Positions 959 through 54,386 of a DNA stretch of 58,658 bases are shown in pieces (position 1 is the first letter of the stretch; every line of letters starts with the position of its first letter). Origin of the DNA: Eledone cirrhosa (taxonomy: Eukaryota); contig CAXHJY010000283.1 of assembly GCA_964016885.1 (NCBI GenBank), positions 1 to 58,658 of the forward strand, read 5' to 3'. The notes below the pieces were generated by a model that was not told the origin of the DNA, did not search any database, and saw only the letters and a list, made by a program, of their open reading frames with translations. The position numbers and the translations under genes were made by a program.

Positions 959-1314
959 TAGAAAGTGAGTTTTTTTACAAATTGAAAAATAACCGAGGTC
1001 TCCTACACGAATGAAAGTATAAGAAAAAGAGATGAAGTCGAAATGCAACTGGAGTCTTATTTTTTTTCAAATATATATATTTATTTGGTTCCTTTACCGG
1101 TTTCGCAGTTCTTCTGCTTTTCAAAAGTAGAGTTGAGATGGAGGGTCTGTGGTTGTTATCACATCTGATATGAGAAAAACCACAGACCCTCCATCTCAAC
1201 TCTACTTTTGAAAAGCAGAAGATCTGCGAAACCGGTAAAGGAACCAAATAAATATATATATTTTTTAAATAAATAAGACTCCAGTTGCATTTTCGATTTC
1301 ATCTCGCTTTCTTT
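959..1314. mobile_element. Fold-back element family A, copy 1 (PLE-terminus-like hairpin with tail)
   Basis: Inverted arms ~1018-1165 and 1167-1314 around apex cacatc-t-gat, unpaired tail 959-1017, flanked by (TA)n. Confidence 0.8.
1205..1240 (+). ncRNA. Minimal type-I hammerhead-like motif (U3-A8 variant)
   Basis: ctt-UUGAAAA-GCAG(aagau)CUGC-GAAA-CCGG-UA^-aag; palindromic ACCGGU helix III; helix I only 3 bp; mirrored on the minus strand in the left arm. Confidence 0.55.
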
Positions 1315-3295
1315 ATATATATATATATATATATATATATATATATATATATATATATATATATATATGTATATATATATATATATATATGTATATATAT
1401 ATATATATGTATATATATATGTATATATATATATATGTATATATATATATATGTATATATATATATATGTATATATATATATATATATATGTATATATAT
1501 ATATATGTATATATATATGTATATGTATATATATGTATATATATATCTGTATATGTATATATATATATGTATATATATATATCTCTATATATATATATAT
1601 ATGTATATATATATATGTATATATATATATGTATATGTATATATATATATGTATATGTATATATATATGTATATATATATGTATATATATATATATATAT
1701 ATATATGTGTGTGTATATATGTGTTTATATATATATATGTGTATATATATATATATAAATGTGTGTGTGTGTATATATATTTATATATATATATATATGT
1801 ATATATATATATATATATATATATATATATATATATATATATATATATATATATATATGTGTGTGTGTGTGTATATATTTATATATGCGTATATATATGT
1901 GTATATATATATATATATATATATGTATATATATGTGTATATATATATATATATATATATATATGTATATATATATATGTGTGTGTATATATATATATGT
2001 GTATATATATGTGTATATATATATATATATGTATATATATGTGTATATATATGTGTATATATATATATATATGTATATATATATGTATATATATATATAT
2101 ATATATATATGTGTATATATATGTGTGTATATATATATATATATGTATATATATGTATATATTTATATATATATATATATATATATATATATGTGTGTAT
2201 ATATATATATATATATATATATATATATATGTGTGTATATATATATATATTTATATATATATATATGTGTATATATATATATATAAATGTGTGTGTGTGT
2301 ATATATATTTATATATATATATATGTGTGTGTATATATATATATATATATATATATATATATATATGTGTGTATATATATATATATATATATATATATAT
2401 ATATATATATGTATATATATATATATATATATATATATGTATATGTATATATATATATATATATATATATGTATATATATATATATGTATATATGTGTAT
2501 ATATATATATATGTGTGTGTATATATATATATATGTATATATGTGTATATATGTGTATATATATATATATATGTGTGTGTATATATATATACATATGTAT
2601 ATATATATATATATATATGTAATATGTGTATATATATATATATATATGTATATATATATATATGTGTGTATATATATATATATATGTATATATATATATA
2701 TATATATGTATATATATATATATATGTATATATATATATATATATATATGTATATATATATATATGTATATATATATATATATATATGTATATATATATA
2801 TATGTATATATATATATATATATATGTATATATATATGTATATATATATTTATATATATACATGTTATATATATTTATATATATACATGTTTATATATAT
2901 ATGTTTATATATATATATGTATATATATATGTTTATATATATATATGTCCATATATATATATGTTTATATATATATATATATATATATATATATATATAT
3001 ATATATATATATATATATATATATATATATATACATAGATATGTGTGTATATATATATATATATGTATATATATATATATATATGTATATATATATATAT
3101 GTATATATATATATATATATATATATGTATATATACATGTATATATATATTTATATATATACATGTTTATATAGATATGTTTATATATATATGTATATAT
3201 ATATATGTTTATATATATATATATGTCTATATATATATATATATATATATTATATATATATATATATATATATATATATATATATATATATATAT

Positions 3296-3657
3296 TAGAT
3301 AGAAGTGAGTTTTTTTTACAAATGAAAAATAACCGAGGTCTCCTACACGAATGAAAGTATAAAGAAAAAGAGATGAAGTCGAAAATGCAACTGGAGTCTT
3401 ATTTTTTTTTCAAATATATATATTTATTTGGTTCCTTTACCGGTTTCGCAGTTCTTCTGCTTTTCAAAAGTAGAGTTGAGATGGAGGGTCTTTGGATGTT
3501 ATCAAATCTGATGTGAGAAAAACCACAGACCCTCCATCTCAACTCTACTTTTGAAAAGCAGAAGATCCGCGAAACCGGTAAAGGAACCAAATAAATATAT
3601 ATATTTTTTAAAAAAATAAGACTCCAGTTGCATTTTCGATTTCATCTCGCTTTCTTT
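3296..3657. mobile_element. Fold-back element family A, copy 2
   Basis: Near-identical to 959-1314; HHR-like motif at 3548-3583. Confidence 0.8.
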
Positions 3658-5290
3658 ATATATATATATATATATATATATATATATATATATATATATA
3701 TATGTATATATATATATATATATGTATATATATATATTATGTATATATATATGTATATATATATATATGTATATATATATATATGTATATATATATATAT
3801 GTATATATATATATATATATATGTATATATATATATGTATATATATATGTATATGTATATATATGTATATATATATCTGTATATGTATATATATATATGT
3901 ATATATATATATCTCTATATATATATATATATGTATATATATATATGTATATATATATATGTATATGTATATATATATATGTATATGTATACATATATGT
4001 ATATATATATGTATATATATATATATATATATATATGTGTGTGTGTATATATGTGTTTATATATATATATGTGTATATATATATATATAAATGTGTGTGT
4101 GTGTATATATATTTATATATATATATATATGTATATATATATATATATATATATATATATATATATATATATATATATATATATGTGTGTGTGTGTGTGT
4201 GTATATATTTATATATGCGTATATATATGTGTATATATATATATATATATATGTATATATATGTGTATATATATATATATATATATATATGTGTATATAT
4301 ATATATATATATATATATATATATATATGTATATATATATATATATATATATATATATATATATATATATATATATATATATATATATATATATGTATAT
4401 ATATATATATATATATGTATATATATATATATGTATATATGTGTATATATATATATATGTGTGTGTATATATATATATATGTATATATGTGTATATATGT
4501 GTATATATATATATGTGTGTATATATATATATATATACATATGTATATATATATATATATATATATGTATATATGTGTATATATATATATATATATGTAT
4601 ATATATATATATATATATATATGTATATATATATATATATATGTATATATATATATATATATATATATATATATGTGTGTGTATATATATATATATATGC
4701 TATATATATATATATATGTATATATATATATATGTATATATATATATATATATATATATATGTATATATATATATGTATATATATATATATATATATGTA
4801 TATATATATGTATATATATATTTATATATATACATGTTTATATATATATGTTTATATATATATGTATATATATATGTTTATATATATATATGTCTATATA
4901 TATATATGTTTATATATATATATATATATATATATATATATATATATATATATATATATATATATATGTATATATATATATATAGATATGTGTGTATATA
5001 TATATATATATGTATATATATATATATATATATATGTATATATATATATGTATATATATATATATATATATATGTATATATATATATATATGTATATATA
5101 TATATATATATATATATATATGTATATATATATGTATATATATATTTACATATATACATGTTTATATATATATATGTTTATATATATATGTATATATATA
5201 TGTTATATATATATATATGTCTATATATATATATATATATATATATATATATATATATATATATATATATGTATATATATATATATATAT

Positions 5291-5647
5291 TAGAAAGTGA
5301 GTTTTTTTACAAATTGAAAAATAACCGAGGTCTCCTACCCGAGTGAAAGTATAAAGAAAAAGAGATGAAGTCGAAATGCAACTGGAGTCTTATTTTTTTT
5401 TCAAATGTATATATTTATTTGGTTCCTTTACCGGTTTCGCAGTTCTCTGCTTTTCAAAAGTAGAGTTGAGATGGAGGGTCTTTGGTTGTTATCACATCTG
5501 ATGTGAGAAAAACCACAGACCCTCCATCTCAACTCTACTTTTGAAAAGCAGAAGATCTGCGAAACCGGTAAAGGAACCAAATAAATATATATATTTTTTA
5601 AAAAAATAAGACTGCAGTTGCATTTTCGATTTCATCTCGCTTTCTTT
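5291..5647. mobile_element. Fold-back element family A, copy 3
   Basis: Near-identical to 959-1314; HHR-like motif at 5538-5573. Confidence 0.8.
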
Positions 5648-6233
5648 ATATATATATATATATATATATATGTATATATATATATATGTATATATATATA
5701 TATATATATATGTATATATATATATATATGTATATATATAGTATATATATATATATGCATATATATATATATATGTATATATATATATATATATGTATAT
5801 ATATATATATATGTATATATATATATGTATATATATATATGTATATGTATATATATGTATATATATATCTGTATATGTATATATATATATATGTATATAT
5901 ATATATATATGTATATATATATATATATGTATATATATATATGTATATATATGTATATGTATATATATATGTATATGTATATATATATGTATATATATAT
6001 ATATATATATATATATATATATATATATATATATATATATATATATAATATATATATGTATATATATATATTGTTATACTTTGGGAGGGTCATGTTGCCA
6101 ATAAGAAACACACGCACCAGTTGCTTTCACTTCAATTTATTATATATTTATAAATTTATAAATTTACAAATCTACAAACTTATAAATTTCTGGTTGGTTG
6201 GTTGGTTCCACAACCAGATAGTTGTTTATATAT

Positions 6234-52977: not shown

Positions 52978-53142
52978 TTTTTTCTATCAGGACTAGAACT
53001 GTTTCATTCGAAGGAAATCATCAGGAAAGCCCTGGGTTTTCTGATGATATACTAGGTTTTCCTGATAAATACTTATACTCTGCTATGTATTGAGTACCTT
53101 ACTTACTGTGGTTATCCCCGATTGAACCCGGGATACACATTT
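52978..53142. mobile_element. Fold-back family F, opposite orientation, partly deleted
   Basis: Matches 25258-25445; adjoins (TA)n; a third fragment lies near 40975-41020. Confidence 0.7.
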
Positions 53143-53156
53143 TCTATCTATCTATC

Positions 53157-54133
53157 TCACACTGAGTGTGCCCAGGCGCTCACCGCCCTCTGGCAGGCGG
53201 ATCCGGTTATCAGTGGAGACTCCACCGCAACATTCTATAGAGGGCTGGTACGCAGCAGGTGCGACGACGCCCTCGGAGAAGCCCTAGACATGGAGGAGGA
53301 CGAACTGGCCAGCCTTTTCGGTAGGACATTCAGCCCGGGACCTATGGACAACTTCCAGAAGTCCCTGGCCTGGCAGTGCTACCGAGGGGCTTTACCCGTT
53401 CGAGAAAGGCTCTACAGACACGGGCGCCCGGGTAGGGACCCCGCCAAAAAGATCTGTCCCAGATGCGTGTGCGACGAGGAAACCGTTGCACACGCATTAG
53501 TACACTGCTCGGGCGTAGCCGATCTGTGGGGCTATGTCGAACAACTGCTGTCAAGGGTGGGACCGATCCGGTTGACCACCGAGTCTATTGTAATGATCAA
53601 GCCGCCTCCCCCCTTCAAAGATGAAGCAGAGGCGGTGTTTCTGTGCGTAATAGCCATGGCGAAAGAGGTTGTATGGTGGACGCGTCTGAAAGGACTGAGG
53701 TCGGGCACCTTTCTCTCTGGCCAACAACTGGTCCGTTTCTTCCGATATCATTTCGGAAGAAGGATCAGGATGGAGAGAGAGGTGCTGCACCCCAGCCGTT
53801 TCTATGAAAGATGGGTGAAAGTGGCGAGAATGGCCCGTGTGAATGGGCCTTCACTCTACATCAGACTATAGGTGAGGAAGATGAAAGACCAAGGGAGCAC
53901 CCCTTCTCTGTGCTCCTGAGGAGAAGGGTTGCACACTTTTTTCGGGGGTGTGTGCGACCCCCCAAGGCGCCTCCTCTCTATTGAGGATTTTGTTAAAAAT
54001 TTTATTTTTTGTTATATCTTATTTTATTTTTATATTTTGTTATTGCCTCCTCCTTATTGAGGACGCCTTTTTGTGTAAACTCCCCCCTTTGTACTTGTCC
54101 CACTTTTGATGCCCTAGTGGCAAATAAAAGAAA
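53157..54133 (+). mobile_element. 5'-truncated Tx1/L1-type LINE: zf-RVT C-terminus plus 3' UTR
   Basis: Open frame to stop 53871: KSLAWQCYRGALPVRERL...CPRC...EETVAHALVHC (CCHC); ends aataaaagaaa; (TATC)-like repeats at both junctions. Confidence 0.85.
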
Positions 54134-54168
54134 TATATCTATATCTATATATATATATATATATATAT

Positions 54169-54386
54169 ATTAAAATAACAGATTAAAGTTTAAGCAAAGA
54201 GTCGCTCCTTTCACCCGTAACGGGAGCTTCAGAAGATCCCGTTACGGGTGAAAGGAGCGACTCTTTGCTTAAACTTTAATCCGTTATTTTAATAAATATT
54301 TGCTCTACGGTTCTTATATATTTGATATATATTTATCCTTATCGAGCCCTCTTTGGATTTTAGTCTTCAAATTTATTATTATTACT
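54169..54386. mobile_element. Fold-back family E
   Basis: 62 bp arms 54169-54230 and 54232-54293 (2 mismatches), 1-nt apex inside a C-N-GAAGA core, then cccg(tta)cggg-t-GAAA-G...C-UC; tail to 54386. Confidence 0.8.

Follow-up and report, generated by a model that had tools for sequence, protein, structure and literature searches.

Mini-hairpins in (TA) repeats of Eledone cirrhosa are 3′ ends of Penelope-like elements and likely record where element RNA begins

Introduction

What produces the short non-coding hairpins that lie beside (TA)n in the genome of Eledone cirrhosa? The window analysed here (58,658 nucleotides, forward strand) is the entire small unplaced contig CAXHJY010000283.1 of assembly GCA_964016885.1. 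A preliminary description of it recognised families A, B, D, E and F and offered two readings: extreme truncation products of several Penelope-like element (PLE) families, or self-propagating non-autonomous hairpin retroelements. The origin of the inverted pseudo-LTRs (pLTRs) and tails of PLEs is posed as an open question in section 15 of Craig et al. (2021), in Arkhipova (2013) and in Frangieh et al. (2024). We report that the mini-hairpins are the 3′ termini (pLTR plus tail) of ordinary PLEs in families A, B, D, E and F, endonuclease-bearing in A, B, D and E and probably so in F, and that a new self-propagating element behind them is not supported. Their geometry, a tailed and a tail-less 5′-truncated copy head to head in (TA)n, has already been described for PLEs. 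In four of seven families the copies often stop at one promoter-like spot, and the hairpins thus likely record where the element RNA begins.

Elements in the window

The elements listed in the preliminary description were found in place (11/11), each beside (TA)n and with a tail extension on one arm. Families G and H had been missed.

959–1313, minus strand: hairpin of family A, the 3′ end of a Neptune/Nematis-like PLE; tail at about 959–1020; the tailed arm runs to 1167, which is 212 nt from the 3′ end, and the tail-less arm occupies 1167–1313; TTGAAAA-type minimal hammerhead in the arm
3296–3656, minus strand: family A copy that shares the private apex of the insertion at 959 and is likely its local tandem duplicate
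5291–5646, minus strand: family A copy, also likely from local tandem duplication
6073–6776, plus strand: family G, the tail-less arm long and the tailed one short; canonical CTGAAGA hammerhead at 6245–6273 (minus strand)
7640–7830, minus strand: family H, tailed 3′ end; CTGATGA core at 7780–7819
12468–12638, minus strand: family B, divergent subfamily, Hydra-type PLE 3′ end; tail and arm, inverted arm partly rearranged
16016–16313, plus strand: family D hairpin (Hydra-type); tail-less arm 16016–16122, tailed arm beginning at 16128; CCGACGA core in a full hammerhead fold
18035–18227, minus strand: family B hairpin; 77-nt tail, half hammerhead, templated repeat at the apex
18953–19144, minus strand: family B hairpin, divergent subfamily
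19178–19254, plus strand: family E remnant; tail-less arm and the last 22 nt of the tail
25257–25445, minus strand: family F hairpin; tail of about 65 nt, CTGATGA hammerhead in both arms
28761–28951, plus strand: family B hairpin; tail-less arm 28761–28817, tailed arm 28817–28951
40978–41019, minus strand: F-related tail-less hammerhead fragment
52978–53138, plus strand: family F; tail-less arm and a tailed arm with an internal deletion
54171–54385, plus strand: family E hairpin (Hydra-type); 87-nt tail, apex 158–161 nt from the 3′ end, CAGAAGA-core hammerhead

All three family A copies are present, but their common private apex and near-identical TA-rich flanks point most likely to tandem duplication of a single insertion and not to separate insertions. 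The E element at 19178 and the F element at 52978 had also been called hairpins; both exist, but the former is a remnant and the direct arm of the latter is deleted.

Tails and target sites

The tails measure 59 nt in A, 77 in B, about 70–74 in D, 87 in E and about 65 in F, within the 55–95 nt first estimated, and each family has a constant tail offset. Of the tail-less ends that lie no more than 6 nt from the boundary, 18/20 in B, 6/6 in A and 14/16 in E fall at a single base. Targeting of (TA)n was borne out in the genome sample, where (TA)3 follows the B ends in 27/27 tailed and 20/20 tail-less copies against a background of 10%.

Links to Penelope-like elements

No PLE ORF was found within the window itself. 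Elsewhere in the genome, all five original families tie to a PLE ORF, F through a sister subfamily, which upholds the PLE origin for A, B, D, E and F; these links do not extend to G and H. In A, B, D and E, longer copies continue into RT and GIY-YIG ORFs (in D and E an endonuclease-side ORF in sense, by motifs). These four have the single RT plus GIY-YIG ORF of an EN+ PLE on the same 3′ end. The hairpin families also show the pLTR with hammerhead, the optional tail and the inverted 5′-truncated copy of such elements. Profile matches in A have E values of 6.3e-6 (Pfam GIY-YIG) and 2.7e-4 (RVT_1); in B the GIY-YIG profile reaches an E of only 0.026, and the RT was recognised by motifs. The tails of A, E and F lead into the start of a PLE ORF (loci L171, L150 and L301), an arrangement that locates the tail, together with both RT starts, in the 5′ portion of the mRNA. 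L301 belongs to the F sister subfamily and runs from the tail into a PLE N-terminus, without an RT or EN part; the genome copies searched included no long one of exactly the F subfamily present in the window. An ORF adjoining an F-related copy at L298 was rejected as a link, as it belongs to another PLE.

Judged by motifs in the regions recovered, B, D, E and F carry Hydra-clade features: the CxCX5C linker in B, D and E, DKT instead of DKG in B, an RWK-type motif (RWRA in E, R*RA in F) and insertion into (TA)n. Family A appears Neptune/Nematis-like on the same grounds, with GLKF, DKG, YLDD and a CX4CxxC linker before a C-terminal GIY-YIG (GxKF, DKG and CX2-5CxxC in that group).

Hammerhead motifs

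Full or half hammerhead-type motifs are present in the arms, as had been described. The F motif, CTGATGA..TGAAA, is canonical and resembles the Hydra hammerheads in Craig et al. (2021; File S2, PMC8557442). Relative to that form, B, D and E have core changes; the variant cores are CCGACGA in D, CAGAAGA in E and TTGAAAA in A. Short B copies retain only the 3′ half, and the TTGA(C/G)AA half lies upstream in long copies. An Rfam search gave no hammerhead family among the best 150 of 476 weak matches, and those listed were all below threshold and of miRNA type. Monomer folds of five hammerheads gained no stability over shuffles (z −1.9 to +0.9), a measure uninformative on activity. The apices of E and F coincide with the 5′ edge of hammerhead stem I.

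Positions of the 5′ ends

Positions of 5′ ends are counted in nt from the element 3′ end. In B, 61/86 arms end in one 17-nt window (130–146; 26.6 expected under an exponential null, P<1e-4), with a second peak at 134; altogether 75/86 end at or below 146 and 11/86 are longer. A has 8/14 ends in 203–219 (P=1.5e-4) and G has 10/28 at 308–323. The E cluster is weak (13/39 in 148–164, P=0.01), with 11/39 arms near 161, 16 shorter and 12 longer. The ends of F also cluster, although its P value was left unused, being confounded by a short reference. D (102–657) and H (96–317) showed no sharp cluster. A seeming stop of D at 480 nt came from a too-short reference, and a G cluster at 79–80 from a BLAST break in low-complexity DNA; neither was kept. 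Of the first of the two early readings, the PLE origin is supported. The stereotyped apex noted for B is confirmed.

Consensus TATA box and initiator motifs were used for matching. The B mode (138) and the E mode (161) sit on perfect matches to T[CT]A[GT]T[CT], found at ~1% of positions, and B has TATTTA(T/A) 31 nt upstream of its mode; the A mode lies 30 nt below a TATA box (241 to 211), with the motifs for A, B and E picked after the modes were seen. The mode of the F sister subfamily also lies 30 nt below a TATA box (164 to about 134). The apex lies 42 nt upstream of the hammerhead in A, about 5–8 nt upstream in E and F, inside loop II in B and about 60 nt upstream in G, and in every one of these families well upstream of the cleavage site. 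The clustered ends of A, B, F and G, and weakly of E, appear to lie at TATA/initiator-type motifs and not at a fixed hammerhead position, which suggests that the cluster marks a transcription start and that the short copies are strong-stop-like products. Counting against this are the second B peak, the weakness of the E cluster and the lack of a sharp one in D and H. In addition, some templates start further upstream, as indicated by the 5′ pLTRs of two ORF-bearing copies, L171 (extending to 326 versus 211) and L301 (several hundred nt upstream), and by the 11 long B arms.

Proposed mechanism and alternatives

In the proposed mechanism, the PLE protein uses both nicked strands of the target as primers and begins reverse transcription at two sites in the 5′ pLTR, one yielding the tailed and the other the tail-less copy. 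Both cDNAs would run off at the RNA 5′ end (predicted transcript starts: B 138, A 211, E 161, F about 134 and G about 313), and their ends would be joined by microhomology or templated-insertion end joining, as the templated repeats at apices may reflect. The hammerhead would simply be carried along with the pLTR; in B it would be halved by a putative start that falls inside its stem II loop. In Frangieh et al. (2024; PMC11167929), both strands are nicked and extended, two internal RT starts define the tail, and hammerhead cleavage is dispensable. The Penelope start site sits in the pLTR (Schostak 2008), and rotifer pLTRs contain TATA and Inr. Taken as a whole, pairs of truncated PLE 3′ ends formed by dual-strand priming and run-off at the RNA 5′ end are probably the best explanation. 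A likely third option, beyond truncation at random and self-propagating hairpins, is that ordinary PLE insertions come to a halt at one favoured position, which is probably the 5′ end of the RNA. More tentatively, PLEs might do this routinely, running off at the RNA cap, such that most insertions are paired strong-stop cDNAs; some 10^5 promoter-plus-ribozyme hairpins would then map start sites at base resolution, and some may be SINE-like sources.

A single cDNA of the same PLE origin could instead fold back and self-prime up to the tail boundary, as proposed in print (Arkhipova 2013), or RT could stall at RNA structure in the hammerhead region. This we consider possible but doubtful. The arms are near-equal in most short B hairpins and agree at the five main subfamily sites (47/47, 43/43, 44/44, 42/42 and 49/49), an agreement that does not separate two primers from fold-back copying; an apparent discordance between arms at B position 94 is explained by query bias and does not speak for two templates. 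The stem I position of the E and F apices, and that of the B apex just past stem II, would also suit stalling, but the apex position on the hammerhead is not constant across families. Against fold-back, the tail-less arm exceeds the tailed arm by 97–427 nt in A, D and E (526/738, 123/220, 213/423 and 343/770 for tailed/tail-less), although unequal arms could also arise from later deletions at the palindrome centre, and the fixed tail-less end fits a second RT start that has been demonstrated biochemically.

Less probable still is a SINE-like role, in which short start-site copies give rise to RNA of their own and move in trans as non-autonomous partners of PLEs, each insertion forming the hairpin afresh. 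Short copies do prevail in B, non-autonomous PLE derivatives are known (MRC1, retrozymes), the exact window-F subfamily has yielded only short copies, and some F apices occur more than once (20 of 24 are unique, a count affected by ascertainment and one duplicated locus). However, the match between short and ORF-bearing B copies extends throughout, long copies occur in sister B subfamilies too, and short copies of A, B and F lack the upstream TATA box.

The second early reading, in which the entire hairpin is copied intact as a hairpin retrozyme or circular RNA, is very unlikely. High copy number (roughly 10^5 per genome, extrapolated from a 1.29 Mb sample), stereotyped ends and hammerhead motifs would suit it, but 21/21 parsed B apices are unique, which implies that each hairpin formed anew. 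Moreover, only 27/55 tailed copies in the sample have an inverted partner, the remainder being single; arm lengths form a continuum reaching multi-kb copies; longer copies carry PLE ORFs; half of the core is missing in B; and the tandem hammerhead units that retrozymes need are lacking. Non-LTR retrozymes were likewise rejected, given head-to-head pairs or single copies, the half core in B and only rare short tandems (L150). Rejection of a MITE or fold-back DNA transposon rested on the asymmetric tail and variable arms, versus symmetric fixed-length terminal inverted repeats.

A fold-back read or assembly artefact can practically be dismissed: the contig is small and unplaced and no read or contig spanning the full D locus was found, but the divergence between paired B arms is 5.4%, each family keeps one tail offset, every large contig sampled carries copies, and independent raw short reads of other samples contain tail-less ends and a few opposite-strand joints, with the tail-less D end running into (TA)n in 88 and 96 reads from another study.

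With minimal junctions that arose independently and number in the tens of thousands for each family, the hairpins offer a population-scale footprint of the reaction, covering the two priming sites, the site of the stop and the scars left by joining. For annotation, such repeats are PLE ends and not MITEs, miRNA hairpins or new ribozyme elements.

Comparison with known systems

The closest counterparts of B, D, E and F are the Hydra-clade PLEs (Craig et al. 2021, PMC8557442), including Hydra-1_Obim of Octopus bimaculoides, which share the C-terminal GIY-YIG and the CxCX5C linker (B, D, E), DKT (B), the RW-type N-terminal motif (E, F), the CTGATGAT..TGAAA hammerhead (F), (TA)n targets and an inverted 5′-truncated copy at the 5′ end. 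Compared with the available part of that account, the tails here are longer (65–87 versus 30–40 nt), the cores of B, D and E are variant, and there are tens of thousands of very short hairpins with clustered apices, for which that part gives no account. Family A resembles Neptune/Nematis PLEs in GLKF, DKG, YLDD, the CX4CxxC linker, GIY-YIG (Pfam E 6e-6) and (TA)n, but differs in its U3-A8 core variant. This variant also occurs in the Schistosoma dual min-HHRs (Cervera & de la Peña 2014, PMC4209133), opposite-strand minimal hammerhead pairs 100–700 bp apart that were ascribed to truncated PLEs; their ends, tails and apices were left unmapped there and are mapped here. Metazoan non-LTR retrozymes (Li et al. 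2026, preprint 10.64898/2026.07.22.740005) are similarly non-coding and pLTR-derived with a type I hammerhead, but form head-to-tail tandems with complete hammerheads, whereas the hairpins here are head to head and often have half a motif. The Poseidon PAc in vitro system (Frangieh et al. 2024, PMC11167929) has the same two internal RT starts bracketing the tail, dual-strand nicking and extension, and dispensable hammerhead cleavage; the available part of that work derives neither genomic mini-hairpins nor a halt at the start of transcription, which the hairpins of E. cirrhosa likely record.

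Results and Discussion

All 11 fold-back elements placed in the window by a preliminary description were found in position on this complete contig (58.7 kb; the 3.0 Gb genome comprises 1796 contigs). Each has the same order of parts: (TA)n, tail-less arm, apex, arm plus 3' tail, and (TA)n. The elements at 19176 (family E) and 52978 (family F) carry internal deletions. The three family A copies have a private apex in common and most likely represent a single insertion duplicated in tandem. The listed families A, B, D, E and F are present, but two others built on this design had been overlooked:

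6073-6776, family G: multi-copy; canonical CTGAAGA hammerhead; tail ~57 nt; long tail-less arm
7640-7830, family H: CTGATGA core; tail ~75-80 nt; hairpins frequent; 5' ends scattered

The tails of B, D, E and F all open with a CTC...GAG stem, and GTATTGAGTAC is common to those of B and F; this stem and motif constitute a candidate RT-binding element. Additional CTGANGA..GAAA matches (18268-18295, 18826-18867, 43339-43365 and 43814-43840) are possibly other Penelope-like element (PLE) ends, or chance. A symmetric TIR element at 15126-15300 (ends TACCGTATTTCC), also within (TA)n, is MITE-like and has no relation to the PLE hairpins.

A first look at the genome gave at least 2690 candidates for B, at least 2066 for A, at least 1427 for D, at least 2582 for F and at least 1044 for E, which are lower bounds because just 40 per family were scored. 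The sequence continues upstream as element in 2 of 29 other B loci, and querying with this upstream part retrieved copies entering an ORF with DKT, YRDD, WFNPP, CNCX5C and YIG motifs. D and E copies lead, in sense orientation, to an endonuclease-side ORF of the same type as that of B, and A copies to an ORF with GLKF, DKG, YLDD and CX4CxxC and a GIY-YIG match (Pfam, E 6.3e-6). In three partial tandems outside the window, the tail is directly continuous with the ORF start: A (locus L171), E (L150) and a sister subfamily of F (L301). A, B, D and E are each linked to a PLE ORF, and F to an ORF start through its sister subfamily. Judged by the diagnostic motifs of Craig 2021, B, D and E are Hydra-clade, A is Neptune/Nematis-like and F is probably Hydra-clade. 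File S1 of that paper (PMC8557442) includes an octopus Hydra element inserting in (TA)n, and Hydra elements in its File S2 have the GAT-stem-TGAAA hammerhead layout of family F. At L150 (about 1300-1650, minus strand), the E pseudo-LTR (pLTR) end and ORF start are duplicated head-to-tail as a 207 nt unit, an arrangement like a retrozyme precursor. Another locus (G000:C3:68089333-68100468) holds seven family A ends spaced about 0.9-3.5 kb apart in a satellite-like local array.

A census of 129 segments, each 10 kb long and placed at round coordinates (1.29 Mb in total, with small chromosomes over-represented; copies with identity <84% or an edge within 30 nt excluded) yielded 27 tailed copies of B, 13 of F, 9 of E, 4 of A and 2 of D, roughly scaling to ~63,000, ~30,000, ~21,000, ~9,000 and ~5,000 genomic copies, respectively. 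An inverted tail-less arm adjoins 27 of the 55. Among ends no more than 6 nt from the boundary, the tail-less end lies at a single base in B (18/20), A (6/6) and E (14/16); internal ends elsewhere are scattered in this sample. All 47 B ends in the sample run into (TA)3 (background 10%), along with 9/15 tail-less F ends.

Apex positions are given in nt from the 3' end. When the census is pooled with incidental copies from loci fetched for other families, B arm ends fall at 130-146 in 61/86 cases (26.6 under an exponential null; P<1e-4), A at 203-219 in 8/14 (P=1.5e-4) and E at 148-164 in 13/39 (P=0.01). G ends fall at 308-323 in 10/28. Mirrored F cores lie 5-29 nt apart in 24 hairpins, 20 of which come from non-random loci. 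D and H arm ends are scattered, without a sharp cluster; a first D apex test was discarded as a reference artefact. The stereotyped product proposed for B is supported; ends also cluster in A, F and G, and weakly in E, but not in D and H. Self-propagation of hairpins as whole units was not borne out: the 21 B apices that could be parsed (from 49 hairpins) all differ, several with templated repeats. B arms are concordant at five main subfamily sites and diverge by 5.4% within hairpins versus 10.5% between them. Unique apices and concordant arms together indicate that hairpins are made afresh from one subfamily's RNA. In long hairpins, either arm may be the longer.

The apex is not the hammerhead cleavage site, which lies 139 (A), 97 (B), 115 (E) and 89 nt (F) from the 3' end, whereas the arms reach 211, 138/134, 161 and about 134 nt; the RNA template is therefore uncleaved, as is that described by Frangieh 2024 (PMC11167929). 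Nor is it one fixed structural element, since its distance upstream of the hammerhead core varies from about 5-8 nt in E and F through 42 nt in A to about 60 nt in G; in B it falls within loop II, hence the halved hammerhead.

The apex does coincide with putative core-promoter motifs, called against the initiator and TATAWAWR consensus. In B and E the mode falls on the central A of a perfect match to the initiator, which is matched at 0.9% and 1.2% of positions, respectively. The A mode has a TATAWAWR box 30 nt above, one of two in 1 kb, and in the F sister subfamily the arm begins 30 nt below the sole TATA box. Long B copies carry TATTTATT or TATTTAAA at -31, and G ends lie at a AAAATGGCG motif downstream of GCGCATGCGC, which we take to be YY1- and NRF1-like. 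The A, B and E motifs were spotted once the modes were known; F and G were inspected with promoters in mind.

We infer that the clustered arm ends mark the transcription start of PLE RNA, which the pLTR contains (Schostak 2008; Craig 2021). As described by Frangieh 2024, the PLE protein acts on AT-rich DNA by nicking and extending both strands, and RT begins at two internal sites that flank the tail close to the ORF start. Priming within the 5' pLTR would leave just 50-250 nt of template, so that both cDNAs would terminate by run-off at the 5' end of the RNA, and end-joining would give the observed hairpin; longer arms would arise where RT is primed within the 3' pLTR or uses read-through RNA. 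Against this model stand the lack of clustering in D and H, the weak E cluster and two ORF-bearing copies whose 5' pLTR extends beyond the predicted start. Hairpins may instead originate by fold-back self-priming (Arkhipova 2013), and short copies may act as SINE-like sources.

Raw reads, consulted because fold-back reads could mimic hairpins, bear out part of the D locus. In two runs of another study, 88 and 96 reads, respectively, pass from the tail-less end into (TA)n at 16240, and opposite-strand joints occur in small numbers (3+1 and 6+4 reads), but no read or contig piece spans the whole locus. Runs X1-X3 may be from the source sample.

The window also contains two SINE-like dispersed repeat families:

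24153-24351, 32906-33093, 36469-36577, 44237-44450, 50980-51197: about 190 nt, B-box-like GTTCGATTCC
29047-29235, 43922-44073, 44625-44813, 55822-55955: second family

An open frame of 271 aa (53056-53871, +) directly adjoins the F element at 52978 and presumably resembles a LINE C-terminal zinc-finger region. Long ORFs in the long minisatellite and (CAA/CAC)n arrays (45169-49988, 56767-58101 and 7940-11630) are spurious products of the arrays.

At search-result level, the open-access literature gave no description of apices that cluster at the start site, or of a strong-stop product. The inverted 5'-truncated copy with optional tail is on record (Craig 2021; Goubert 2022), as are hammerhead pairs on opposite strands, attributed to truncated PLEs (Cervera 2014, PMC4209133). 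The hairpins are ordinary PLE debris, and their regularity is unusually informative and testable; their arms stand head to head, whereas the pLTR-derived retrozymes described by Li 2026 (preprint 10.64898/2026.07.22.740005) are arranged in tandem.
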